A DNA stretch of 64,000 nt from assembly GCA_032249395.1 (NCBI GenBank), contig JAVVFY010000003.1, positions 40,738 to 104,737 of the forward strand, read 5' to 3'. Of this stretch, positions 1 to 14,042 are shown piece after piece; the stretch's first letter is position 1; the number at the start of each line of letters is the position of its first letter. Origin of the DNA: Candidatus Aenigmatarchaeota archaeon. Lineage in GTDB: Archaea; Aenigmatarchaeota; Aenigmatarchaeia; CG10238-14; SpSt-28. The notes under the pieces are model-generated. The model had not been told where the DNA came from and searched no databases. It saw only the letters and a list, made by a program, of their open reading frames with translations. A program made the translations under genes and the position numbers.

Positions 1-3000
1 ATATTTCTCAAAGAATTAACAAAGTTTGTTGAATCGTTGCTGTCAATTGAATAATTGCTCCAAACTTTTGATAAAGCTAATGAATGAGAATAATTTTGCC
101 AGAATATTCTTTTGTTCAATAAATCATCTGCAATTGAAACCTTTGCCTCAGCGATTGTTAGATTTTCATCTCCAAAACTATAGTTGATTAAAAATGCAAT
201 TTCTTTCATTTTTTCATATCTTGCGTTAATTGGTTTTGTAAACACGAATGGATAAGTTAAGCTACAAGAGTTTCCATAACAAGAAATTGAAGTATCGTTA
301 ACAAAATAGCTTTCGCTTCTCGTATCCAAAATTCCTTCAGCAACCAAAACTTTCTTTCCTTCTAATGAACAATTCAAAGTGAAGTTTAAGTAAGAAGAAG
401 AATATACACTCAAAGATGGTAAGCTCCAAGATATCTTTCTTGTTGATGGATTGAAAGTTCCGCCATTATAAACATTTAAAACGTCGCACTCTTCTGGAAT
501 GCTTAAATAAACGCTCCATCCAGAAGCTGTTGTATCGCCAATATTAGTTACTTTAAGGCTGTAATTGTAAGCTCTGTTTAGTTGAGAAGATCTTACTTCT
601 GGCCATGGATATTCATCTTGCTGTATTGCCTCTATATCGAATGATAGATGAGACTCTTGATTGTAAGAAGCTGTTGAAACTGTAAATGGATTTTCTTCTT
701 CAAAGCTTTTTCCATCCCAACTAACATTAAACTTGAAGCTTCCAGTTTTCGAATAAATATTTGGTGCTTTTACTTGATAAGTTAGAACTGCATACTCATT
801 TACATCAATGTCTCCAAGATTCCAAATTACCAAATTGTTTATCAAATCTACTGAAGAAGAAAGCAACTGAACGCTGCTCCCATAAACGTTTGTTTTAATG
901 CTTGGATTTGCTGGAGTCCAACCACTTTCCAAAGTCTCAATTATTGTTGCACCAGAAGCTTTAGCACATCCTTTGTTGTGAACTACTAATCTACTTTCGA
1001 AAACTTTATCTGGTGAAACAAATGGAGGAGTTTCTCTTATGACTTCAAGAATTGCTATTGAATTGCTTTCTTGAATTTGGAAAGTTGCTGTTTTTGTTTT
1101 TTGAGTTATGTGATTGTAATTAACAATTGCTTGAATGTTTGCCAACTCGCTTGTTGAATTGCTCGAAGTTAAAGTGAACTGAGCATAATACTTTCCGGGA
1201 GTTATTGCTTTAACAAGTTGATAAGATGGGGTGAATGTCCAGCCAGTTGGAACAGAAAGAGTTACATTGTAATCTATTTCTTCGTTGAATGGATGATATA
1301 TTTCTACAATGAATGGTTCGCTAGTGGAATTGCACATCCAATTGCTTCCTTTAGCATTAACAGTAACGTCTTTAATGGTTAATAATTCAACTCTAGTAGA
1401 AACGTTTGAATTGTAAACAAATGTTGCAATTATATTGTAATTTCCTTCACTCCAAGCTTGAGTATCAATGTTTGAGAAGTTTGCTATGTAACTAGATTTT
1501 TGATTCAAAAGTAAAGGTGAGCTAGATGAATAAACAACATTACCATAAGCATCTGTTATGTTTAAGTAAAGCGTTCCAGAAATTTGTTGGTTGAATGAGT
1601 TTGAAAGAATTACAGAAATGTTCAAGTATCTATCTGTTTTTTCCAATCCTTTTACAGAAATGCCATTAACGTTTGTATCTACATCTTGAATCAAAACAGT
1701 TTCATTGTAGTAAGCAGAAAGCTTTAGGCCAGAAATGTTTACAGGATTGTCACCAATGTTTGTAATTCTTATTTTGCAATAGCCAGTTTCACTTGGCTGA
1801 ATTTGTTTTTCTAATATTGGAATGAAGAGAGAAGATGGAGAAGTGAAGTAGAGAGAATGAGAAACATCTAACCAATAAGTTCCGTTGTAAACCTCTATTC
1901 TAATTTTTCCATCTTGCAAGCTTGAGGAATAAGTGGAAATTGAAAGATTAGCTATTCTGTAACTTCCAGCTTCACAAACAAAATTGAACTCTTTAGCTTC
2001 ATTTGAATTGAGCAAATATGGCAATTCTTCTTGAGAAAAAGTTTCACTCATGAACTTATAAGTAAAAACATTTATCGTTAAGCTATCGTTTTCGGCGTTG
2101 CTTGAATTAACAAATATTATTATTTGGTTTGACGAATAGGTTGTTGGGTAAATGTTGAACCAAATTGTTTTTAATTCTCCAACGCTAACATTTCCAACAT
2201 ATTTTGTTGTTGAATCTGCTTGCCACCCAGTTGGCAAAGTCAAATTAACATAAACATCATTCGCTACAGTACCGCTTGGTCCCAAAGTTCCAACTGTAAC
2301 TCCAAGAGTGAAGTTTTTGTATTGGAAGGCTTCTTTTGGTTGTTTGATTTCTCCTATTTTTATTTGAGGTTTACAACCAGAAGTATCTATTGAAATGTTG
2401 AAGTAGCTTGTTGTGTATGGCTTGTAATATGGCTCATCTGAAGCTATTTCAGCATACCAATATTGATCTCCGCTAGAAAAGCTACAATCTGGAGTAAAGT
2501 AGAATTCTGCGTATCCAGAAGAGTTTGTTATGTTTGATCCTATAATTTTATCGTAAAGGCCATTATACTTTATTCTAAATGTAACAGTTGCTGCCGGATT
2601 CAAATTGTAGGTTTGTGCATCTAAATCGTAAACTCTAACAACAAACTTAGCTGATTGAGCAGGAGAATATTTAGCAAAGCTATTGTTACCTTCTACATAG
2701 CTTATATTAACATCATCTTTTTCTACAGTTACATACAAAACTTGAGTAGTTTCTGCCCCATCCATCTTAAACTGATAATACCAATTTCCTATGTCGTTTG
2801 CAGTAAAGTTTCTATACCAATACTTTGTTGAATTTATGCAATTGGAGCATTCATTCGGAGTTTGATTTATGCAAGTTGGGGCTTCACATTTGAATATTGG
2901 CGGCCATGTTTTTCCCATATACAAGCTAACGTTTAGAACGTTTTCTGAATCACCTGAAGAAGCTTTTACCGAAAAGTTCCAATTTGGATAACCCCAACCT

Positions 3001-6000
3001 TCAGATAGTGGATAAGCTTGTGGATTTTCCAATTTTTTGATTGGCAACAAGTAGAACAAGCCAGGATATAAAGCATTAACTGTTGAGTTGGGATAATGAT
3101 AATCTTTACTTGCATACATTGTTGTGTTGTACCAGCCCATTGGAGTTAAAATATCAGTTTGCCAATCGCAAGTGTAAGCGTTAGCACCTACTTGATATAC
3201 TGGCAAACATTCAAAGCTTTGAGTTGATTTATTAGCAAAGAATCTCACGTTTGTTGTTAATGCATCTCCACAATCATCAGTAGTTGCTCCTAAAAAGCTT
3301 ACTTTTTGTTCTTGTGTGAAGTTTGTCGTACCATCTGGCTTTTGGAAGTTTAAGATTATATCTCCTGTAACCAAGACTGAAAGATTGACAAAATTTTCTG
3401 TTGAATTATCAAAGTAACAAGCATGACCACTAACAACTGCCTTCCATTTCTGATATCCAACTTGATATTTTGGCGAGCATTTTGCTTGGAAGTAGTAATT
3501 AGCATAAGCTGATTCGTTTGTTGAATTAGTTGTTCCAGAATCGTAAATGTTTCCATCTAATGTTACGTAAAATGTTACTGGCAAGTTTGTTATTAGAGTG
3601 TTATTCTTATCTCTAACCCTCAAAGCAAGCAAAGTTGTTGTTTTTCCTCTTCTCGTTTCTGTACCATTGCCAATAATATCTTCAAAGAATATTGTGTCTT
3701 TTGTTATTGTGAATGTTGTTGAAGTTGAGTTTGTTGTTCCTGCATTGTTTGTAGCGTTAAACTTAACGAAAACTGGAGAACCTATATCGCTACAATCGGC
3801 GTCAAACTCAAAAGTAAAGTTTATCCAATCTCCAGTATTTCCAGCACCTGGAGCAGGATAAACATCACAACCTACTAACCTCCAAGGCTCTGAACCAGTT
3901 TTGCTAAAGTATGAGCAAACTTGAACATCGTTTTCTGAATTTGTAACTCTAACGCTTACATTAAAAGTAAAGTTGAATCCCCAGCTTCCAGTGGAAGTTC
4001 CTGTTTCTTTTGAAATTACCAGTGGATTTTCCATTTCAATGGTTGCTGGTGGTAAGCCAACTAAAACATCATTGCAAGACATTACTTCAGTTGAATTTTC
4101 AGTTGAATTTGCTCTTATGCAAATTGTGTAAGTTCCTGCAGTATTTGCTGTAATGTTCCATTTTGCTTCTCTAATTCCGTTCAATTCTATAGTTCCAAGG
4201 TAATTGACGTCACTTAAATCACCAGTAGCATTTCTAATTTCTAAAACTCCTGGGCCAGTGTAATTTATTACAGCAATAACATTGCTTGCGTTTCCTGGGC
4301 CAAAGTTTGTTATTGTTGAGCTTGCATTGAAAGGCTGATTTAAAAATGGATTGTTAGGAGAGAAGCTTGGTTGACTAACTGTTAAACTTGCTCCACATGC
4401 AATGAAAATATCATATGGTTCGTCTAAGAATGTGAATGTTCCGTTTGTTGGAATTGCTTGAAATCTGAAAGTACCATTGGTCTGGAAAGTTACATTAATT
4501 GTGTAATTGTAAATTTTAGTTCCGTCAAGTCTTCCGAAGGGTGAACCAAAATTTATTCCTCCGTCCCAATTGATTTTTCTTGCATCATCTATTGTTGCTG
4601 TTGTTGGGAGGGATGACCAAGGATATTGAAATATTAAATCTTGCGGGTGCGTTACTGTAATGTTATATTTATTTTCTGTAATATTTGCATTTATCAATGG
4701 TAAGTTGCCTTTATTCCATGTTTGTAAAGATACATTGAAAATACCGCAACCTACAGTTGATGGAAAACCTGTTTTATAGCTTGTTGAAGTATCATTGTAA
4801 AGTCTTTGTGTTTTGATCCATGGACCTTCTACAACTAAAGGTATAACATCATCAGTAAACAACCACATTGTTGGAGATTGAGCAGTGTAAGATCTTCCTA
4901 TAGTTCTAATAAATATATGTTTTCCTCCTGGAGTAATATGAGGTATATTGCTAACATCTAAATTGAAAGTAAGAGATACAAAACCATTATTTGATGGAAC
5001 TGAAAACAATAAACCTCCTTTAAACCAAACGGTCCATCTTACAACCCATCCTTCATCGGGAGAACCATATGGATAGCCTGGTGCTGGTGGGACACCAAGA
5101 TCAGCTCCTGCTGAGCTTCTCCAAACAAAATTTTTCGGAGTTAAACCCGGTGGGAAATGTATTTCAACATCGTAGATATCGCTAAAAGTACCAGCTCCAC
5201 CCCCACTTCCAAAAAGTCTAATTTCTACGCCAACATTTGTAGAATTTGCAGGAATTTTAGTGATGTTTATTCCATATACAGTAGAACCTCCGGCTCTACC
5301 ACTTCTTGCAGGGAAGAAAGCTAATTCCGGATCTGTTGTTATAGAGAAAGTTTGCCCAGTTACAGGATCATTCCATACAACTTGAGCTATAAATTCCTCT
5401 GGAAATGTATCTCCACTACCAGGATATCTAACTAAAAACCATTGGCATTGTGAAGTTGAAATATTGTAATTTAGCCATTTGACTTCTCCTTTTACAGGAG
5501 TTACGCTAGCTGCTGGTACTTGAAAATCTGATGCTGATAAAGTACGAGTAAAATCTGTTAGGTTATAAGTTATATTGTAGTCACCATAGTTACATACCGT
5601 AATATTGCGCCAAACCGTACCGCTACCAGCTGATTGAGTTACTGCAGTTGCATAAGAAGGTGTTACTGTTGTTAAAGTTAGTGGAGAGGGTTTAATTCCT
5701 AAAGACTCTACTTGGAATATTTTATCATGAACGATTTCTGGTTTGTTTGGAGATTTTATTCTAATTCTTGCTATGTATTTTTTTGAAGCATCCACATCAT
5801 CAGGAATTTTTACATGCCAAACAGTATCATTAAACGACCAATTACCAATTTGTGATGGTGGCGTACTCTTTACAAATACGCTTCTGTCAGCACCTTCAAG
5901 AATAAACCAATTCTGTTTATTTCCTTGTTCATCTAAAATTTCTAAAGATACATTGGCAATTAAGTCGTTTGTAGTGTTGTAATTTCCTATAGGCGCTACT

Positions 6001-8795
6001 ACTAGCGCCCAATAACCACCAATAACTTTATCTTTTGCGTGGGTAGATACAACTATATCTCTTGCAAGATTGATATCATTACAATCTATAACTCTAATGT
6101 TCTGCTTATCTGTATCTTTTTGTGGTGCTGTTGGATGTAGAGGATGGAATATACGAAGCGTATATTCGCCGAGCTCTACATCATTAGTTATGTTTAAGAA
6201 ATATGTTCCCCAAAAACATTTATCATTTACTCCTCCTCCTAATTGACAACCATCAGCATTTCCTAATTCAGTTCCTGAAATTGGAACATCATTAGCTATA
6301 AATCCGAGAGAAGGCATATCAGAGAATACTACATCATTTTTTCTTTTAACTTGTAACTTAAGATTGCCTGCTGATGTTGGATCATCATCTGCATTATCAA
6401 TTAGAGTAAAGTTTATTGTATAATTGTACCCTCTGCATAACGTTAAAGGATCGGCACGAAAACTAGTTTGATTAAAGTAAAAATCCCAACCAAATAAGTA
6501 AAATCTTAAATCTTCTGCAAGTATAGTCCAGCTTCTGCTTTCCTTAAATGTTTCTCCATTGTTGTAATGCATTTCTACTGGACCAAGAAGGTAAATTCTT
6601 GGAAATAGTGGGGGTAAGTCAAAGGAGTAATTCAACAAAATTCTTTCTCCCTTTCTAATATTCGGTAAATTCCAAACTATTAAAATCTCTTCTGGATTCT
6701 TGATTATCACCCCATCACTTTTAATATTCAAAAATTCAGTAGGAACGCGCTCAATTACAGTTAAGTTGTAGGCATCTATCTTTGCTATTATATTCAAAGA
6801 AACAGTAGTTCTTGCTTCAACCCTTATTTTCGTAGGAAATTCATCTAAAAATGGCTCTTGCCTCAATATATCAAAGGGATAAAATTCTTTAACTTCGAAG
6901 TTTGTGGAGTATTCATTGCTTACGTTCAAACCTTCTTCAACACGTACATATACAGAGTAATTGCCTACTTCACTTACAGTATAATTAGCTACATAAGTCC
7001 CGTCAAATCTATTTAAAATTTCTGTAGGATTTATTATCGTTTTTTTACCAGAAGGATTAGTTACTTCTATAAAAACTATAGCATTTGTAACAGCCTTACC
7101 TTCGGCATTTAAAGCGCCAACAACTATTCTAACAGTTTCCCCAGGAGAGAAAGTCCCTGCACCAACATATACAGTTCTTTTAAAGCCATTATTAGAAATT
7201 TCCAGTGCCTTTAAAGTATTTACATTTACTAAACCGACAGCAAAGCTAATTTCTTCTTCAACCACTTCCTCTCCAGGATTCGGACTTACATAACTCAATT
7301 TAACTTTAAGCTTGTACAAACCTGGCCTAAATTCTCTTTCTGCATCTAACTCAACAACAAACTTTCCAGGACCAACTTGAGTATAATTAACTTCAGTTAT
7401 ATTTCCATCTGGATCTACAACAAAAGCTTGCAAAGTAGCATTTGGAAATATTTCGCCAGTATCTTCATAAATAGCTGAAATCTCAAACCTTATTTTTTCT
7501 CCAAGCTCATAATTGAACTTCTCTTGCTTAACTTTTGGTTTTACTTTTATGTGCTTCAAAACATTGAAATCAAGAGTTTTGCTTGCATTTCCAAATTCAC
7601 TTTCAGCAAAAATTTCTGCTGAATATTTACCATAAGCTTTTGGCAAAATTTCAAAAGTGAAATTAAAGCTACCATTAACAAATTGCTCATCCTCAAAAAC
7701 GACTTTACCTTTAACATCTTTAACTATAAGCTTAACTCTAGAATTAACCAAATTTCCATTGTAGTTAACATTTCCGTAAATTGAAACGACTTTCCAATCG
7801 CCTTTTCCTTTTGTGATATTTTTAACTGAATAAAATGCTTCGACTGATGGAACAAAACTTATTTTAGGTTGCGAATAGTTAGATACAACAAAATAAAAGC
7901 TTGTTTCATTTTTCAAGCCTAATGCTTCTATTATCAAATAATAAATTCCATCTTCGCTAAAGTTAGCAATTAGAGAAGAATTAAAGCTACCGTTAACAAT
8001 TTCTATTTCTTTTGAAAGCAAGAGAGAAGAATTAAATTGCAAGCTTAAGTTTGCGGTAGCATTAACTTTTTCTCCATCAACAACAAGTTCTCCAAAAATG
8101 TTAATTGTTTCGTTTGAAGTGTAATTTGATTTATCAGTTAAAATTGTCAAGTATGTCTGATTAGTTTGAGTAATATTTTCACTTACGTTTTCAGAAGGAA
8201 TTGTAGTTGTTGTTACAGAAGTTGTAGTAGTTATCTCTTCTTTTCTCTCAATTGTTATTTCAGCTTCACTTGGATTCAAATAATCTTTTTCACTTCCTTT
8301 GAAAACTGCTTTTACTTTTGATGCATTGATAAGATTAAAAGAAAATGTTGAAATTCCAGAATCATCTGTAAAATTGCTACCGACAAAATTCCCATCAACA
8401 TAAAATTCTATTTCTTTATTTGGAACAAAAGAACCATTATCGAGCAAAAGCTTAGCAGCTATTAAACCATTCTCAACTTTCAAATCTATTGAAGTGTTTG
8501 CAAAAACTTCAACTTTAATGCTTTCTTCAACAACATTAGAAACTCCAATAAATCTTCCCGTAATATTACTCCAGTTTGTTGCTAAAAGAATTGCAGAAGC
8601 TAGAGCAATGAAAAGTAAAGAAGTAATTATTTGGGTTTGTCCCTTCAAACTTTTTTTCGATTTTAAATTTAGTAATGCAAAAAAGAAAAGAATTGCAAAA
8701 GAAATTGCAAATGGTAAGAAAATTAAGAAAGGTAAAGTTAAGTATGGCAAAAATTCTTCAATAAGACTTTGACTTTTTAGTTTAAACTTACTCAT
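1..8795 (-). CDS. Giant (>2,900 aa) cell-surface/adhesin-like protein with tandem Ig-like beta-sandwich modules; 3' end lies beyond the window
   Basis: ATG at 8795 overlaps the upstream gene's stop. It reads MSKFKLKSQSLIEEFLPYLTL...KSLKGQTQIITSLLFIALASAILL and the same frame is still open at the window edge (...SNDSTNFVNSLRN). Its absence from the ORF track is consistent with no stop in the window. Thr-rich linker (~8160-8240), many N-x-S/T sequons, CARDB/DUF11-like motifs (TITNFGPGNASNV, KVTNIGDTTASG). Confidence 0.88.
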   Translation of the reverse strand, partial: MSKFKLKSQSLIEEFLPYLTLPFLIFLPFAISFAILFFFALLNLKSKKSLKGQTQIITSLLFIALASAILLATNWSNITGRFIGVSNVVEESIKVEVFANTSIDLKVENGLIAAKLLLDNGSFVPNKEIEFYVDGNFVGSNFTDDSGISTFSFNLINASKVKAVFKGSEKDYLNPSEAEITIERKEEITTTTSVTTTTIPSENVSENITQTNQTYLTILTDKSNYTSNETINIFGELVVDGEKVNATANLSLQFNSSLLLSKEIEIVNGSFNSSLIANFSEDGIYYLIIEALGLKNETSFYFVVSNYSQPKISFVPSVEAFYSVKNITKGKGDWKVVSIYGNVNYNGNLVNSRVKLIVKDVKGKVVFEDEQFVNGSFNFTFEILPKAYGKYSAEIFAESEFGNASKTLDFNVLKHIKVKPKVKQEKFNYELGEKIRFEISAIYEDTGEIFPNATLQAFVVDPDGNITEVNYTQVGPGKFVVELDAEREFRPGLYKLKVKLSYVSPNPGEEVVEEEISFAVGLVNVNTLKALEISNNGFKRTVYVGAGTFSPGETVRIVVGALNAEGKAVTNAIVFIEVTNPSGKKTIINPTEILNRFDGTYVANYTVSEVGNYSVYVRVEEGLNVSNEYSTNFEVKEFYPFDILRQEPFLDEFPTKIRVEARTTVSLNIIAKIDAYNLTVIERVPTEFLNIKSDGVIIKNPEEILIVWNLPNIRKGERILLNYSFDLPPLFPRIYLLGPVEMHYNNGETFKESRSWTILAEDLRFYLFGWDFYFNQTSFRADPLTLCRGYNYTINFTLIDNADDDPTSAGNLKLQVKRKNDVVFSDMPSLGFIANDVPISGTELGNADGCQLGGGVNDKCFWGTYFLNITNDVELGEYTLRIFHPLHPTAPQKDTDKQNIRVIDCNDINLARDIVVSTHAKDKVIGGYWALVVAPIGNYNTTNDLIANVSLEILDEQGNKQNWFILEGADRSVFVKSTPPSQIGNWSFNDTVWHVKIPDDVDASKKYIARIRIKSPNKPEIVHDKIFQVESLGIKPSPLTLTTVTPSYATAVTQSAGSGTVWRNITVCNYGDYNITYNLTDFTRTLSASDFQVPAASVTPVKGEVKWLNYNISTSQCQWFLVRYPGSGDTFPEEFIAQVVWNDPVTGQTFSITTDPELAFFPARSGRAGGSTVYGINITKIPANSTNVGVEIRLFGSGGGAGTFSDIYDVEIHFPPGLTPKNFVWRSSAGADLGVPPAPGYPYGSPDEGWVVRWTVWFKGGLLFSVPSNNGFVSLTFNLDVSNIPHITPGGKHIFIRTIGRSYTAQSPTMWLFTDDVIPLVVEGPWIKTQRLYNDTSTSYKTGFPSTVGCGIFNVSLQTWNKGNLPLINANITENKYNITVTHPQDLIFQYPWSSLPTTATIDDARKINWDGGINFGSPFGRLDGTKIYNYTINVTFQTNGTFRFQAIPTNGTFTFLDEPYDIFIACGASLTVSQPSFSPNNPFLNQPFNASSTITNFGPGNASNVIAVINYTGPGVLEIRNATGDLSDVNYLGTIELNGIREAKWNITANTAGTYTICIRANSTENSTEVMSCNDVLVGLPPATIEMENPLVISKETGTSTGSWGFNFTFNVSVRVTNSENDVQVCSYFSKTGSEPWRLVGCDVYPAPGAGNTGDWINFTFEFDADCSDIGSPVFVKFNATNNAGTTNSTSTTFTITKDTIFFEDIIGNGTETRRGKTTTLLALRVRDKNNTLITNLPVTFYVTLDGNIYDSGTTNSTNESAYANYYFQAKCSPKYQVGYQKWKAVVSGHACYFDNSTENFVNLSVLVTGDIILNFQKPDGTTNFTQEQKVSFLGATTDDCGDALTTNVRFFANKSTQSFECLPVYQVGANAYTCDWQTDILTPMGWYNTTMYASKDYHYPNSTVNALYPGLFYLLPIKKLENPQAYPLSEGWGYPNWNFSVKASSGDSENVLNVSLYMGKTWPPIFKCEAPTCINQTPNECSNCINSTKYWYRNFTANDIGNWYYQFKMDGAETTQVLYVTVEKDDVNISYVEGNNSFAKYSPAQSAKFVVRVYDLDAQTYNLNPAATVTFRIKYNGLYDKIIGSNITNSSGYAEFYFTPDCSFSSGDQYWYAEIASDEPYYKPYTTSYFNISIDTSGCKPQIKIGEIKQPKEAFQYKNFTLGVTVGTLGPSGTVANDVYVNLTLPTGWQADSTTKYVGNVSVGELKTIWFNIYPTTYSSNQIIIFVNSSNAENDSLTINVFTYKFMSETFSQEELPYLLNSNEAKEFNFVCEAGSYRIANLSISTYSSSLQDGKIRIEVYNGTYWLDVSHSLYFTSPSSLFIPILEKQIQPSETGYCKIRITNIGDNPVNISGLKLSAYYNETVLIQDVDTNVNGISVKGLEKTDRYLNISVILSNSFNQQISGTLYLNITDAYGNVVYSSSSPLLLNQKSSYIANFSNIDTQAWSEGNYNIIATFVYNSNVSTRVELLTIKDVTVNAKGSNWMCNSTSEPFIVEIYHPFNEEIDYNVTLSVPTGWTFTPSYQLVKAITPGKYYAQFTLTSSNSTSELANIQAIVNYNHITQKTKTATFQIQESNSIAILEVIRETPPFVSPDKVFESRLVVHNKGCAKASGATIIETLESGWTPANPSIKTNVYGSSVQLLSSSVDLINNLVIWNLGDIDVNEYAVLTYQVKAPNIYSKTGSFKFNVSWDGKSFEEENPFTVSTASYNQESHLSFDIEAIQQDEYPWPEVRSSQLNRAYNYSLKVTNIGDTTASGWSVYLSIPEECDVLNVYNGGTFNPSTRKISWSLPSLSVYSSSYLNFTLNCSLEGKKVLVAEGILDTRSESYFVNDTSISCYGNSCSLTYPFVFTKPINARYEKMKEIAFLINYSFGDENLTIAEAKVSIADDLLNKRIFWQNYSHSLALSKVWSNYSIDSNDSTNFVNSLRN

Positions 8796-9381
8796 AAGCT
8801 ACTCTCACCTTTATCTCACTTTCTCCAAGTTTCGTTGATAAATCGCTTTTAACAGAAAACTCTAACTCGCAATAAGAGTTTACTTCGATTACATTGCAAA
8901 CTTTTTCTAAGGCGTCTGTCGAAAATCCTTTCGGCAAATCGACAGATACTCGAACGTTTGTGGCATTAGCACTTCCTTCATTGCTAACAACAACTCTTAA
9001 CAAGAAACTCTCTCCTCTTGTTATTCTGCTTTTATCGGTGCTTAATCTCAAAGAGATTTTTGGTTTTGCGATAATTTCTGTTGTTTGAGAAATTTGCGTA
9101 GCAGATGTCGAAACGTTTTCACTTGCTCCATTTTCTTCTGTGCTATTAGATTCATTCATTTGAGTAAGTTCAGAAGAAGTTGTATTCGACGAGTCGACAG
9201 ATTGTTGTGAAGTTGAGTTTTCAGAAACCAAATTTGTCGAAGCTGACTGTTCACTCGAATTTTCATTTGTTGTCAAATTTAGTGAGCTGTTCATAGCTTC
9301 TTGAGCAATCGACAAGTAGAAAAAGAAAGAAAAGGCTAAGAAAATTGCCAATAAAGCTAGAAATTGGGCTTTTCCCTTCAT
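8788..9381 (-). CDS. Secreted/surface protein with a class III-like signal peptide, Ser/Asn/Thr-rich linker and C-terminal CARDB/NEW3-like Ig domain
   Basis: MKGKAQ plus hydrophobic stretch; VVVSNEGSANATNVRVSVDLPKGF motif; translationally coupled to the giant ORF. Confidence 0.8.
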   Translation of the reverse strand: MKGKAQFLALLAIFLAFSFFFYLSIAQEAMNSSLNLTTNENSSEQSASTNLVSENSTSQQSVDSSNTTSSELTQMNESNSTEENGASENVSTSATQISQTTEIIAKPKISLRLSTDKSRITRGESFLLRVVVSNEGSANATNVRVSVDLPKGFSTDALEKVCNVIEVNSYCELEFSVKSDLSTKLGESEIKVRVAYE

Positions 9382-10354
9382 TTTTAACTCCTATTGCTTA
9401 ACACTAATGATAAGCAGAGTTGTTTGTCGACCCATATATAATTTTTTTAACAACCTGTCGAGAGTGAAAATCGACAGTTCGACACCTCGACAAAAAAGAA
9501 GAATAGCTTTTATTTTTAGAATAAAAGAAAGAATATATGCTTAAAGAGATTTTTGGTTTGAAAAAAGAAAACAAAGATGAAAAAATTGATGAGATGATTA
9601 AGTTAATTGATTCTCAGCTCTCTATGATTTCTATGGAAATTGAGAAGTTGAAGAATTTGGGTTCTAAAATTGAGAATATTGAGAAAAAAATAGCAATTTT
9701 AGAAGAGCTTATTAAAGAACAAGGAGTCGAAATAAAGCCAAAACCGGTTAGTGAGAAAACAAAAGAAGCAATAAAGACTTTGTTGAAGAGATATGGAAGC
9801 TTAAATGCCTGGCAGGTTGCCAAATTATTAAACATGTCTAGAACAAGATGCGCAGAATATCTTAAGCAAATGGAAGAAGAGGGGATTTTAGTCTCTCAAT
9901 GGAAGAGTCGAAAAAAGTACTATTCGATTCGACAGTAAAATTTTTCGATGAAGTTTTTATTCGACAGATCGACTTTATCCTCTCTATAGATTGTTCCCCT
10001 ATGAAGTTTGTTTATTTTCAAGAATTTCGACAGTTTAACAAGCTTTATTTTTTGAGTAGTCTGAAGAAAGTAAGAGGAATTCTGAGTTGTCGAAAATCCG
10101 ACAGTTATAATAGCTAGTTAGTTTTATTATTTTTTCTGTCGAAGTAGTTGTCGAGATGCTGTTGGGAGAGAATTGAACAAAAAATGCATTATTGAAGGTG
10201 CATTCATCTCAATCTGTCGACAAAAATCGACTGTTTTTCTGAAATTCTCTACTTACTAGAGATAAAAATCTGAAGAGAGAAAAAATTTTGAGAGTTGAAG
10301 TATTTATCTTTAGCATTTTTAATTTTATTTCTAACTATCTAATCAACTCGACAC
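8885..10354. repeat. Dispersed array of TCGACA/TGTCGA motifs (consensus TCGACAG) in both orientations
   Basis: Hand count of ~29 TCGA, of which ~19 are TCGACA/TGTCGA: 8917, 8939, 9106, 9194, 9235, 9309, 9425, 9456, 9471, 9479, 9487, 9929, 9961, 10027, 10088, 10137, 10149, 10215, 10348. Confidence 0.85.
9537..9938 (+). CDS. Coiled-coil plus C-terminal winged-helix DNA-binding protein
   Basis: Heptad-rich N-half; C-terminal LNAWQVAKLLNMSRTRCAEYLKQMEEEGILVSQWKSRKKYY is an HTH with wing. Confidence 0.8.
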   Translation: MLKEIFGLKKENKDEKIDEMIKLIDSQLSMISMEIEKLKNLGSKIENIEKKIAILEELIKEQGVEIKPKPVSEKTKEAIKTLLKRYGSLNAWQVAKLLNMSRTRCAEYLKQMEEEGILVSQWKSRKKYYSIRQ

Positions 10355-10506
10355 TTATTTAGAAATTTTGGGCTTTAGCCTAAGTAAGCCTAAAATGCCA
10401 AGAAAAACCTCAAGATCATAATTTTTGGCCCCTGAGGACAAAAATCATCACAGACCTTTTTATCCTCTTAGCATAAGATTTCAAATTTTTAAGTATCTCT
10501 AGTTCA

Positions 10507-10583
10507 AAATGCTCCACTTGGATCACTTCATACTTCTTAAATTTTAAAAATCAACGCAGATAAATTGTCTAAGTGGAACATTT
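10507..10583. promoter_or_regulatory. Inverted ORB-like pair flanking a 45-bp AT-rich spacer (candidate replication origin)
   Basis: AAATGCTCCACTTGGA (10507-10522) matches the reverse complement of 10568-10583 (AAATGTTCCACTTAGA) at 14/16; resembles the archaeal ORB core GTTCCAnTnGAA; lies in a ~1.1-kb gene-free region. Confidence 0.45.
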
Positions 10584-11050
10584 CAAGACTCTTCTAGCTC
10601 CAATAATGTTAAAGACAAAATCTTTTTATCTATCAACAACTCCTAATTTTTTATGTTCTCTTTCTTGTCAATCAAGCACTTTCTCGTATGCTACATAGGG
10701 AAAAAACTTTATATATGAATCTTTATCCATGATTGCGAAACTCCTTATTTGAAGATATTTTTTTGCAGAGATTGCTTTAAATAATTATCAATAGTTCTAA
10801 TAAAAGAGATAAATTTAGCACAGTATCCTGTGTACCAGAAAAATTTTACATATACCCTTTTACAATGCTGAGGGATTTTTAATTCCTCCAACTTCATTCT
10901 AATTATAAGTTAGAGATATAAATGCTCGTTTGAATATACTAAATTGTGGAAACTGCTCCCCCAGAAAGCCCACTATGTCAATGTTGCTATATCCTCACTA
11001 AAAAAGATGAGGAAAAGGTAGAGAATTTAAGTAGAAGTGGAATCAGGAGT

Positions 11051-11123
11051 GGGCGGGTAGCTTAGTGGCTGGAGCGCTCGGCTGATAACCGAGAGGTCGT
11101 GGGTTCGAATCCCACCCCGCCCA
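11051..11123 (+). tRNA. tRNA-Ile(GAU)
   Basis: Acceptor GGGCGGG/CCCGCCC-A; anticodon arm CTCGG-CT-GAT-AA-CCGAG; T-loop TTCGAAT. Confidence 0.95.
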
Positions 11124-11293
11124 TCTTTACTATTTTTGACTCAGAACCGTACTTAATATTATTATTAATTAATCGCAAATGAGGGAAAAATTAACTATCT
11201 TTATTATTTGTTTACATTCTATTCTTATTTTTACCCTTTCCACTCTTTAAAAAATTAAAGAAGAAGTTTTTAATTAAAACGAGAATAATTTAG

Positions 11294-11890
11294 ATGAAAG
11301 GCAAGTTTATAGTTTTTGAAGGTATTGACGGCGCCGGCCTAACAACACAAGCAGAGTTGTTGGAAAAATATCTAAAAGAAAAAAAATATGAAGTTGTTCT
11401 AACAAAAGAACCAACAAACAGCTTAATTGGAGGTATAATAAGAGCTGCTTTGAAAAAAGAATGGTTAACATCAAACAGAACATTGCAACTATTATTCTCT
11501 GCTGATAGATCCCATCATATTGAAAAAGAAATAATTCCAGCTTTAGAAAGCGGAAAAATAGTTATTTGTGATAGGTATTTCATTTCAACAATTGCTTATG
11601 GAATGATAGAGGTAGAAAAAGATTGGTTAAAATCTCTTAACTCAAAGTTTTTGTTGCCAGATATTATTTTCATAATCGACGTTCCAGTAGAAGTTTCAAT
11701 AGAAAGGATAAAAGCGAGCAGATTTGGATTCGAGCTTTTTGAAGAAAAGAAAAAACTTGAAAAGATAAGAAACAATTTTCTTGAGCTTTCAAAAGAATAC
11801 AAAAATTGCTTTGTGATTAATGGAAACAGAAGTATAGAGGATGTTCATAAGGAAATTGTTAAAATTGTAGAAGAAAAACTAAAGCTCTAA
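11294..11890 (+). CDS. tmk: Thymidylate (dTMP) kinase
   Basis: FIVFEGIDGAG P-loop region, KEPT, ICDRY motifs. Confidence 0.93.
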   Translation: MKGKFIVFEGIDGAGLTTQAELLEKYLKEKKYEVVLTKEPTNSLIGGIIRAALKKEWLTSNRTLQLLFSADRSHHIEKEIIPALESGKIVICDRYFISTIAYGMIEVEKDWLKSLNSKFLLPDIIFIIDVPVEVSIERIKASRFGFELFEEKKKLEKIRNNFLELSKEYKNCFVINGNRSIEDVHKEIVKIVEEKLKL

Positions 11891-12946
11891 TTCGGCCAAT
11901 CTTTTCAAAGCCTCTACTTTTTCTTTTCTTTCAATTTCTGCTTTCTCTAAAATTTCTTTTAATGTTCTTATGCTTTCATCATAAGTCTTTCTATCAACAG
12001 GGTAAGGTATTCTGTCTTTCCCACCGTGTGCAAATGTGTATTTAACTGGATCTATCCAGCTTGCCTCCTTTCCATAAACTAGCTTTGCTATTAAAGCTAG
12101 GGCTCTAACAGTTTTTGGACCAACTCCTTCAAAGGCGACAAGTTCTTCATAATTTTTTGGATCAAATTCATGCAAATCCAAAAGTTTCTGATAAACCTTT
12201 ATATCGAAAGTGTGTTCTACCGGCATTTTGAGAAACTTATATAGGCTATGAGGAGAAGAAAAATATTTCTTGAATTTTCTAACATCCTCTTTAACAATAT
12301 CAACGCTCGCTTTTCTCGCTTCTTCGCTTTCTTTAGCAACCATATTTAAAACTTTCTCTTCCTTAAAGCCAACTATTGCTGAATGAGGTTCCACAACAAA
12401 AGAATTTAATGAGAAAGAAAGCCAATGATATCTTCTTGCCAATTTATTTTCAACATTCATTCCTTGTTGAACTACTGCCCATTTCCCATCTTCTGTTACA
12501 AAAAATGAATGATGATAAATTTGATAACCAGCCTGAATTAAGGAATTATCAACCTTTGCTACCATTCTGCTTGCATACTTTAATTCTTCAATTTTTCTCG
12601 TAGATAGTCTAAATTCCTCCCCAATTTTTTCTATTTCCTCTGGAGTCTTTTTAGAGGATGAACCCTTACCTCCTAAAACTTTAACACCAACATTTTCTTT
12701 GTTTAATCCTTCTTTTAGTGCACCAGTCAGAGTTGTTGTTGTTCCTGAGCTATGAAAATCCATACCTACACAACAAGACAATGCCTGAAACCAAAAAGGA
12801 TTAGATATTCTTTTTAAAAATTCATCAACGCCGTATTCTTCAATTATTATTTTAACTATCGATGTCGAAAGCTTAGTCATTCTTTTGAACAACCAAGCTG
12901 GTACACTTCCATAGTGTAATGGTAGTTCGGCAATTCCCACTCTCAT
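11879..12946 (-). CDS. DUF763-family protein
   Basis: AELPLHYG, DFHSSGTTT, VVQQGMN, ARRYHW, FAHGGKD motifs and an HhH (GVGPKT). Confidence 0.85.
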   Translation of the reverse strand: MRVGIAELPLHYGSVPAWLFKRMTKLSTSIVKIIIEEYGVDEFLKRISNPFWFQALSCCVGMDFHSSGTTTTLTGALKEGLNKENVGVKVLGGKGSSSKKTPEEIEKIGEEFRLSTRKIEELKYASRMVAKVDNSLIQAGYQIYHHSFFVTEDGKWAVVQQGMNVENKLARRYHWLSFSLNSFVVEPHSAIVGFKEEKVLNMVAKESEEARKASVDIVKEDVRKFKKYFSSPHSLYKFLKMPVEHTFDIKVYQKLLDLHEFDPKNYEELVAFEGVGPKTVRALALIAKLVYGKEASWIDPVKYTFAHGGKDRIPYPVDRKTYDESIRTLKEILEKAEIERKEKVEALKRLAELEL

Positions 12947-12951
12947 AGGAA

Positions 12952-13839
12952 TTACTTTGTAAGACGTTTTTTAAACTCTCTTTCAGCCTCTTTTATACAT
13001 TTTATTACTTCTTTTTTAATTTCCTTCCTTAATTTTTCTTTCAACTTAACAATCCTTGACAAATTTTTTCTTTTCTGGACTTTCAATATTAACTTAATCA
13101 TCTTAATTTTCTCTTCATGTTTCGTGTATTTAAGCAACTTTCTGGCAATAGAAATCACTTCATCTTGTCTCTCTAAATATACGATCCAGCGCTTGCATGG
13201 TTCCTTATGAAGTCTAAAAATTGGATGATATCCATCTTTTTTAAGTCTCTCGTATATGCCTCTTAATATGTGCCTGTCCTTTGTGATTATAGAGAGTCTT
13301 ATATTGATACTATTCTCGCCTCTTTTCCTTATAAACCAACAGCCATCAGCATCTATATATCCAGCAAGGAATGCATAAAAAAATTCGCCTTGTGGAAGTT
13401 TTACTGGTTTTTCTAATATAAATTCAAACGAAGAATCTAAGTAAGCTTTAAGGTTCCAATCAAACTTTGGAGTAATCTTTCTTTTTCTGGGTGTCTTACT
13501 GCAGTGACCATACTTACTGAAGAGTTTACAAAAAAGATGAACCATAGAAGGATGAGTAGTTGACAAAGAACATATTATCTTATTGTGCGACTTCACTACA
13601 TAAAGGTCCCCCGAGCGAAAACCGATTAAGTAATATTTCTCTATTTCATTTCCTGAGAAAGGAGATGTTGGATATTCACTATTTGCTTCTGACAAAGTTC
13701 TACGAGAGAGGCTGTATTCAATCATTCTCCGTCTTATAGTTTCTTTACCAACTCCAATTATTTTAGCTATTTGAGATAAACTTAGCTTTTCTTTATAATA
13801 CATTCTCTTTATTTCTTTTATAGGAAATTCTTTTTCCAT
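12952..13839 (-). CDS. Free-standing two-motif LAGLIDADG endonuclease-like protein with N-terminal HTH
   Basis: YYLIGFRSGD and FLAGYIDADGC motifs; N-terminal LSLSQIAKIIGVGKETIRRRM. Confidence 0.8.
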   Translation of the reverse strand: MEKEFPIKEIKRMYYKEKLSLSQIAKIIGVGKETIRRRMIEYSLSRRTLSEANSEYPTSPFSGNEIEKYYLIGFRSGDLYVVKSHNKIICSLSTTHPSMVHLFCKLFSKYGHCSKTPRKRKITPKFDWNLKAYLDSSFEFILEKPVKLPQGEFFYAFLAGYIDADGCWFIRKRGENSINIRLSIITKDRHILRGIYERLKKDGYHPIFRLHKEPCKRWIVYLERQDEVISIARKLLKYTKHEEKIKMIKLILKVQKRKNLSRIVKLKEKLRKEIKKEVIKCIKEAEREFKKRLTK

Positions 13840-14042
13840 TTTATTCTAGCTATTAATGCGGCTTCTTTTAAGTTTCTTCTTTTTATACCAAACTTTTTTA
13901 AATAATATCTCACTCCAGCAGGAGACATTCCTACTAATTTAGCAATCTCGGTAGTGCTTTTCTTTTTTCTCCAATAAAGGTTATATAGCTTTGCTTTTTC
14001 CAAGACTTTTTTGTTTCTACTATTTATTTTTTTATCACTCAT
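13818..14042 (-). CDS. Small basic HTH protein, similar to the N-terminus of the adjacent LAGLIDADG ORF
   Basis: LYWRKKKSTTEIAKLVGMSPAGVRYYLKKFGIKRRNLKEA aligns by eye with MYYKEKLSLSQIAKIIGVGKETIRRRMIEYSLSRRTLSEA. Confidence 0.65.
   Translation of the reverse strand: MSDKKINSRNKKVLEKAKLYNLYWRKKKSTTEIAKLVGMSPAGVRYYLKKFGIKRRNLKEAALIARIKWKKNFL

Follow-up and report, generated by a model that had tools for sequence, protein, structure and literature searches.

A field of TCGACA boxes around a winged-helix gene: a likely operator array beside a giant surface-protein operon in Aenigmatarchaeota

The box field at the locus

The window studied in this work is a stretch of 64,000 nucleotides (nt) from a tiny hot-spring archaeon, Candidatus Aenigmatarchaeota (assembly GCA_032249395.1), and positions below are those of the window unless a contig is named. 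It carries a dense field of the short word TCGACA, written in both orientations, around the gene of a 133-amino-acid (aa) protein that we call the regulator. This gene (9537..9938, + strand) matches the HTH_24 profile, and its product is predicted to consist of a helix followed by a winged helix. Across a divergent promoter region of 155 base pairs (bp; 9382..9536) lies an operon on the opposite strand, which opens with the gene of a 197-aa protein (8788..9381, − strand) and continues with a giant gene, the 5′ part of which occupies positions 1..8795 of the window (− strand). We propose that the field is probably an expanded operator array for the 133-aa protein, a local transcription regulator encoded amid the boxes, which would control both its own gene and the divergent giant surface operon.

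The field runs from 8917 to 10353 and contains 20 exact TCGACA/TGTCGA sites and five boxes that keep only TCGAC. It extends across the 5′ half of the 197-aa gene and the divergent promoter, takes in the final codons of the regulator gene and continues for about 420 bp after them. A first-pass annotation of this DNA had reported about 19 sites in roughly 1.5 kilobases (kb), with fewer than one expected by chance if the GC content was about 30%. Both figures hold. The assembly (752,806 bases in 25 contigs, GC 0.30–0.36, 89.5% complete, with the locus on contig C3) has 165 sites in all, and the 145 that lie outside the cluster, in ~751 kb, give an expectation of ~0.3 per 1.5 kb; only the assumed GC content needs adjusting, as the actual value is 0.31–0.36 and not exactly 0.30. 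The whole window has 33 sites on both strands, as against 9.70 expected from shuffled sequences (standard deviation 2.86, maximum 17; none of 100 shuffles reached 33), and 20 of them fall in the field. The genome-wide k-mer scan that the same annotation had proposed found no similar density elsewhere: the cluster is unique in the assembly, and the runner-up 1.5-kb stretch contains four sites. It is also the largest field among the loci surveyed.

The boxes are distributed over coding and non-coding DNA alike. Six lie in the 197-aa gene, reaching up to 460 nt into the operon, and five in the divergent promoter region (9425 and 9456 on the − strand; 9471, 9479 and 9487 on the + strand), where the three on the + strand do follow one another at exactly 8 bp, as first described. 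One box, the only one in the 133-aa gene, is placed at its stop codon, the gene indeed ending ATT CGA CAG TAA, and eight more lie further downstream, so that nine boxes (9929, 9961, 10027, 10088, 10137, 10149, 10215, 10217 and 10348) trail the regulator from its stop codon to 10353, in line with the nine or so that had been noticed. The first seven boxes of the window strictly alternate in orientation, as do all ten boxes (−, +, −, + and so on) at a related locus, L014 (G035:C4, 1797-2891). We dropped strict alternation as a general rule, because other lineages do not alternate.

The enriched word can be delimited by comparing the locus with the rest of the genome. The region 8885-10354 has 29 TCGA sites, 24 of which extend to TCGAC and 19 to TCGACA; genome-wide, TCGA occurs 1427 times and only 25% of these sites read TCGAC (160 TCGACA, or 11%, plus 200 further TCGAC). 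The enriched word is therefore longer than TCGA alone. The flanks of the boxes show an additional preference that can be written TCGACA-R-n-T, with a purine (R) at +6 in 17 of the 20 sites and T at +8 in 14. Of the 145 TCGACA sites beyond the cluster, 12 are intergenic in a genome whose non-coding share is 12%; they are thus not enriched between genes and give no signal of a wider regulon.

Selection on the word and its association with gene and operon

Several observations suggest that selection acts at this locus on the DNA word and not on the protein. When the 197-aa gene was resampled synonymously with the codon usage of the genome, a mean of 0.29 boxes was expected (maximum five in 5000 trials) where the real gene has six. 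These six fall in three different reading frames and use rare codons (TCG, 5.4% of Ser; GTC, 6.7% of Val; CGA, 2.7% of Arg). In an alignment of four genomes of the genus (A2), all five runs of at least five invariant columns downstream of the regulator are boxes, and the remainder of the ~900 bp of non-coding DNA has diverged. The regulator gene itself takes part in this pattern. In 11 of 11 relatives checked (L007, L009, L052, L054, L055, L060, L062, L064, L067, L070 and L071) the Leu-Ser-Arg of the recognition helix is coded CTG TCG AGR, which places a box within the gene, ~94 nt before the one at the stop codon; the window regulator has ATG TCT AGA at the equivalent site and no box there.

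Homologues of the regulator occur in 25 of 41 relatives and, in a sample of the whole phylum, in 122 of 301 genomes and 59 of 151 genera. The family is nevertheless small, with 171 cluster representatives among 1.84 billion proteins (E up to 0.001). Boxes accompany these genes. Loci L002-L009, the homologues of which share 86 to 46% identity, have 7–15 boxes per ~2–3.4 kb. Among 20 further loci, which include another order and range in GC content from 0.28 to 0.45, 18 have at least seven boxes, and in 17 TCGACA ranks first, alone or in a tie, among GC-rich hexamers. Pooling 34 homologue loci yields 2.10 boxes per kb within 1.5 kb of the gene versus 0.37 per kb elsewhere. In distant families, two to eight boxes are found within 1.5 kb, mostly in or near the divergent intergenic region.

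The same survey bears on the divergent operon. In 11 of 15 loci the regulator faces a divergent gene for a small secreted protein, and a giant gene comes next in nine; a divergent open reading frame (ORF) of at least 1000 aa is present in 16 of the 34 loci, even though cut by the end of the available stretch. The neighbours on the far side of the regulator vary between genomes. Gene, motif and giant operon travel together across the phylum, which supports the early suggestion that the boxes are binding sites of the 133-aa protein.

A change in the presumed reader also goes with a change in the word. Paralogues of 93–95 aa in the genus termed g2 have the recognition helix LSIQRASEYL and lie beside their own giant operon in three of four loci; the DNA upstream of them carries, in all four loci, two to four TTCGA(A) boxes within ~130 nt, in tandem at 7–8 bp, and no TCGACA. 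This suggests that a changed recognition helix goes with a changed box. As the change represents a single evolutionary event, the evidence is suggestive, not statistical. The first-pass annotation had asked whether homologues carry fields of their own that co-vary with this helix. The 25 of 34 loci with at least five boxes and the TTCGA(A) boxes of the g2 paralogues speak for this; full-length g2 homologues, to which we return below, have only 0–2 boxes and do not.

The operon that would be the target is ~38 kb long, or 5% of the genome, and codes for the 197-aa protein, a giant of 11,434 aa, a 536-aa coiled-coil protein, a MinD protein and a 128-aa protein. The 197-aa protein is predicted to be secreted or membrane-bound, with a signal or membrane helix, a Ser/Thr-rich stretch and a NEW3/CARDB-like domain (NPCBM_assoc, 32.7 bits versus 24.4). 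Directly after it, on the same strand, the giant gene (C3:15228-49532) extends over 34 kb, 4.6% of the genome. Its product combines Ig-like, MG2 and filamin-type domains with a HerA-type ATPase at the C-terminus. Two parts of it were scanned, 4520 of 11,434 aa in total: the N-terminal 2930 aa yielded MG2, filamin and NEW3-like domains, the last 350 aa HerA/DUF87, and neither a laminin-G nor a restriction-enzyme domain was detected in these parts. With its length and ATPase tail confirmed here, it can be regarded as a candidate protein of the SPEARE type. None of the boxes lies in the 8.8 kb of the giant gene contained in the window. The last three genes come next, on the same strand and with ends that overlap or abut (C3:12325-15228; positions 1326-4229 of L095); the MinD protein is of the archaeal type (TIGR01969, 211 bits versus a cut-off of 201.75), and no family was matched for the 128-aa protein.

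On its far side, the regulator gene is followed by non-coding DNA (9939-11049), a tRNA-Ile gene (11050-11125) and a thymidylate kinase gene. The ~700 bp between the last box and the tRNA (10360-11049) contain no ORF of at least 60 aa, and genus relatives likewise keep ~900 bp of non-coding DNA after the regulator gene. An Rfam search of 8000-12000 with E up to 1 returned the tRNA-Ile (11051-11123) and two sub-threshold chance matches, so that no known RNA family accounts for this DNA. A box-bounded element of 145 nt (10215-10359, + strand; TGTCGACAAAAATCGAC ... CTCGACAC), which begins TGTCGACA-N4-TCGAC and ends YCGACAC, has a single paralogue in the genome, at C12:417-561 (70.7% identity over 147 nt, E 1.2e-8). 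This second mini-cluster lies ~250 nt from the degenerate end of a CRISPR array with a repeat of 29–30 nt, which is split over the contig ends C16:7230-7692 (seven repeats) and C12:1-160 (two to three, partly degenerate). Another element of 48 nt on the same contig (C12:607-654) is 90% identical to DNA downstream of the regulator gene in the sister genome G001 (locus L019). Comparison of the C12 mini-cluster with the LAGLIDADG gene of the window showed no similarity. The latter (12952-14042), a 295-aa ORF with N-terminal helix-turn-helix and LAGLIDADG-type domains that overlaps the start of a 74-aa helix-turn-helix ORF on the same strand, could be a free-standing homing-endonuclease-like gene.

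The candidate regulator, its promoters and competing explanations

The regulator can be assigned, from profile match and structural model, to the class of winged helix-turn-helix (wHTH) DNA-binding proteins with the HTH_24 or MarR-ArsR-Lrp fold. It matches Pfam HTH_24 with 26.7 bits (cut-off 21.9), and its AlphaFold2 model (pLDDT 86.7 overall, >90 in the winged-helix part) comprises a helix at residues 2-61, a low-confidence linker at 62-72 and a winged helix at 73-131. The latter is formed by helices 73-86, 91-98 and 102-114, the last being the predicted recognition helix with the core LSRTRCxEYL, and by strands 118-123 and 126-131. S101, R102, R104, E107, Y108 and L109 of the recognition helix are invariant in 31 homologues. 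In the N-terminal helix, conserved hydrophobic residues recur from 17 to 59 with a rhythm of three to four and one break near 38-41. A Foldseek search with the model retrieved AdcR, CadC and MarR-family proteins at E values from 4.5e-4 to 8e-3; the solved folds nearest to the regulator are therefore repressors of the MarR/ArsR type, and none closer was found.

Membership of narrower families was rejected. For ArsR/SmtB, NF033788 gave 24.6 bits against a cut-off of 55 and HTH_5 14.5 against 22. For TrmB, PF01978 gave 23.4 bits against 25.6; TrmB proteins have an N-terminal wHTH, then a coiled coil, then a sensor domain, and in the regulator the order of domains is reversed and there is no sensor domain. 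A likeness to EAP30/Vps36 of ESCRT-II (24.2 bits against 26.8; 3cuq_B at rank 29) was taken as a generic winged-helix likeness. Among proteins of 234-2000 aa no fused or longer form of the regulator was found, which is weak evidence. A two-copy homodimer prediction (alignment A1) scored 0.02 with the mark at 0.42 and counts neither way on oligomerisation.

The placement of the boxes relative to the putative promoters gives a first idea of what the protein might do. On the side of the surface operon, a candidate core operator (9425..9441, − strand) consists of a TATA-like box, TTATATAT (9441-9434), three nucleotides (ggg) and TCGACA (9430-9425), the latter thus being located between the TATA-like box and the predicted transcription start. 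In this genome, TATA-like words are most frequent 26-30 nt ahead of ATG and Shine-Dalgarno-like words 6-15 nt ahead of it. As GGAG precedes the ATG of the operon by 6-9 nt, its transcript probably has a leader, and the box would lie between TATA and start. The layout recurs in relatives. Nine of 11 promoter loci have an exact TGTCGA 2-4 nt from an A/T box on the surface-gene side (the A/T box being of the ATATA type in six and weaker in three), one has a mismatch in the box and one a different layout. According to the account of archaeal promoters in PMC5512572, repressors bind over or after the TATA/BRE elements and activators upstream of BRE. A box directly past the TATA-like box of the surface operon would, by this rule, have a repressor-type position.

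The regulator's own promoter is arranged differently. Its T/A-rich box (9508-9517) lies at −29 to −20 from the ATG, and the three tandem boxes (9471..9492, + strand) end 15 nt before it, a layout in keeping with a leaderless transcript whose boxes lie upstream. The tandem word TCGACnnnTCGAC has four occurrences in the genome, each of them at this locus.

Starting from the motif, its uniqueness, its conservation with gene and operon, its position beside TATA-like boxes and the fold of the protein, we infer that the 133-aa protein binds the boxes, represses instead of activating, oligomerises and loops the DNA, and we propose the following mechanism. The C-terminal winged helix would read a 6-7-bp box, TCGACA(R), while the long N-terminal helix would make oligomers, and the flexible linker of 11 residues would give the heads enough freedom to contact boxes of both orientations and at different distances from one another. 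The key box follows the TATA-like box of the surface operon after 3 nt, and protein bound to it would block the recruitment of RNA polymerase; given this position, the protein would most likely repress the ~38-kb operon. The boxes upstream of its own promoter and at its own stop codon may provide feedback on the regulator gene. The remaining boxes, in coding sequence and downstream, would increase occupancy at the locus and make cooperative bridging or looping possible, and hence a sharper on/off response. The idea, present from the outset, of a cooperative switch for the divergent giant operon gains support from the box that abuts the operon's TATA-like box and from the conserved association. 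The excess of boxes, the 8-bp spacing and the second copy of the element fit cooperative bridging, looping or titration without proving any of them.

Several points weigh against this model. The tandem boxes upstream of the regulator's TATA-like box have an activator-type position, so that the direction of control may differ between the two promoters, and at a spacing of 8 bp the heads on adjacent boxes would sit on different sides of the DNA helix, which does not favour binding at the same time. The TATA boxes and transcription starts were deduced from sequence; the sequencing runs listed for 8700-11300 are of hot-spring DNA, with no RNA run among them. The mini-cluster at C12:417-561 adjoins no surface-protein gene. 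Moreover, three full-length g2 homologues with the same recognition helix have 0-2 boxes within 1.5 kb and no giant operon beside them, so that the pairing of regulator and boxes is not obligatory. Finally, a simple repressor needs two or three boxes, as in distant families, and since these families have only two to eight, the field of 20 is a lineage-specific expansion that the simple repressor model does not require. The g2 full-length homologues (L021-L023) are found at the end of another gene cluster, and the boxes closest to them, ~7.5 kb off, are a TGTCGACA palindrome and another box at a distance of 29 nt, where a cluster of six genes begins on the opposite strand.

These g2 homologues, which keep the helix without a local field, also favour the idea that the boxes are read by some other factor, such as a global regulator or a chromatin protein, the wHTH gene being a co-regulated neighbour. 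We consider this improbable. In at least two orders and many families the boxes go with the regulator family, whichever genes lie on the far side; they are changed where the helix is changed, as in the g2 paralogues; and the lack of intergenic enrichment outside the locus leaves no global regulon in sight.

A further possibility is a methylation-dependent epigenetic switch, in which TCGA, as the target of an N6-adenine (m6A) methyltransferase, would compete with protein binding and produce a heritable ON/OFF state. The palindrome is contained in every box, the genome encodes methyltransferase domains of the Eco57I type and of the N6/N4 type, and its 1427 TCGA sites are below a rough estimate of ~2200 from base composition. 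The enrichment at the locus is specific, in contrast, to TCGAC(A), which accounts for 24 of the 29 local TCGA sites as compared with 25% genome-wide. We thus hold methylation to be a very unlikely explanation by itself; given this specificity, it could be at most an added layer on the operator array model.

The first-pass annotation had also considered a parS-type, centromere-like array beside a replication origin, where the wHTH protein would serve as adaptor for a segregation or initiation complex. In its favour are the number of short boxes, their two orientations, their spread over more than 1 kb that includes coding DNA and their uniqueness in the genome, along with the long non-coding stretch that follows (9939-11049) and the MinD/ParA-class gene in the same strand cluster. 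The suggestion fares poorly against the genomic context, and we give it slightly less credence still than methylation. The only Orc1/Cdc6 gene above cut-off is at C1:105590-106438 (233 bits), on another contig than the box locus, although the distance between them is not fixed in an assembly of 25 contigs and 89.5% completeness. Cumulative GC skew on C3 does not turn near 50 kb but follows the gene strand, with its minimum near 66 kb; archaeal skew being often weak, this is weak evidence. Around orc1/cdc6 only weak repeat families of two or three copies and no clear origin were seen, so that this locus is unusable as a positive control. As for a centromere, no ParA-type gene adjoins the field: five AAA_31 matches lie elsewhere, the nearest (C3:13168-13614, the MinD gene at the far end of the operon) ~36 kb off. 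The conserved features are the pairing with the giant operon and the box abutting a TATA-like box, whereas the far-side neighbours vary, and distant relatives have merely two to eight boxes, mostly in or near the divergent intergenic region. The remaining explanation, that the boxes are functionless remnants of duplicated or mobile sequence or an effect of composition, can draw on the paralogue of 10215-10359 at C12:417-561 and is refuted by alignment, codon resampling and conservation over a wide range of GC content, since only the 6-7-bp word is conserved between genera while its flanks diverge, the boxes occupy three reading frames of a real gene with rare codons, and the word is kept in loci of GC 0.28 to 0.45; we give it practically no weight.

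A bolder version of the operator array model is worth stating, even if we regard it as rather unlikely. The 20-box field might act as the nucleus of a nucleoprotein domain, looped or spread and held together by a coiled-coil oligomer, within which the two promoters and the regulator gene would be enclosed. Together with self-regulation and titrating boxes, this would create a heritable all-or-none ON/OFF switch on the 38-kb host-contact operon, resembling phase variation without rearrangement, and its state could be set by TCGA methylation or by capture of the regulator's helix by the coiled-coil cytoplasmic tail of the giant.

The interest of the system lies largely in its target. Among the genes of DPANN archaea, those for giant SPEARE-type surface proteins stand out most, and the proteins are suspected of serving in host contact; here, a 34-kb gene comes with a dedicated candidate regulator and a readable DNA word, phylum-wide. 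One 133-aa protein and a 155-bp promoter make a short, testable parts list for organisms not yet grown alone. The TCGACA array can serve as a marker for giant-gene promoters in metagenomes, and the natural series from 2 to 20 boxes lends itself to the study of how operator number relates to switch behaviour.

Relation to known systems

In the literature searched, we found no description of a TCGACA array and nothing on the control of giant SPEARE-type proteins. The closest parallels are to be sought among archaeal repressors such as MDR1, LrpA and Phr, the operators of which overlap or follow the TATA box. Like them, the system described here has a small wHTH protein, a divergent or self-regulated gene and a putative operator directly after the TATA-like box of its target. 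Unlike them, the regulator has its coiled-coil helix first and the wHTH last, with no ligand or metal domain, and the candidate operator is not one palindrome but a single word of 6-7 bp in any orientation, repeated up to 20 times over 1.4 kb that include coding DNA and a stop codon.

Arrays of short words are familiar from the Omega repressor of plasmid pSM19035, a ribbon-helix-helix protein whose contiguous heptad iterons double as plasmid centromere with a ParA partner. The boxes of the window resemble these arrays in being short words of 7-8 bp, head-to-tail or head-to-head and in variable number, which Omega binds cooperatively, and the Omega case illustrates that such arrays can serve transcription control. 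They differ in that the fold is a wHTH, the boxes are scattered and no ParA gene is adjacent.

A likeness of another kind is offered by EarA, described as an activator of the archaellum (fla) operon of Methanococcus maripaludis, with four copies of a 6-bp word immediately upstream of BRE (PMC5512572). By that description, both are small archaeal regulators (putative in our case) for one long cell-surface operon with several copies of a 6-bp word, and the three tandem boxes upstream of the regulator's TATA-like box have the same kind of position as the EarA sites (PMC5512572). Also by description, EarA activates and has four boxes on one side of a promoter, whereas there are 20 here, one of them after a TATA-like box, and the target is a giant gene (PMC5512572).

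KfrA of IncP and IncU plasmids is an alpha-helical coiled-coil DNA-binding protein that oligomerises and works with the segregation proteins IncC and KorB (PMC7783346). The regulator may be likened to it as a predicted coiled-coil DNA-binding protein, oligomerisation being a feature of KfrA (PMC7783346). KfrA as presented there is much longer and plasmid-borne (PMC7783346), and the searches made with the regulator gave no KfrA match, so that the two are unrelated in sequence as far as these searches reach.

With regard to the target, Hamm et al. 2019 described the SPEARE giants of Nanohaloarchaeota and the occurrence of similar sequences in Aenigmarchaeota (PMC6642349). The giant of the window is similar to these proteins, as they are portrayed there, in being very long and, putatively, mostly extracellular with a cytoplasmic C-terminal enzyme domain; the tails described there have type III restriction-enzyme domains (PMC6642349), and the one found here is a HerA-type ATPase. 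The words regulator, promoter and helix-turn-helix are absent from the main text of that article (PMC6642349). The locus is best read as a new regulator family and a new target within a known kind of system.

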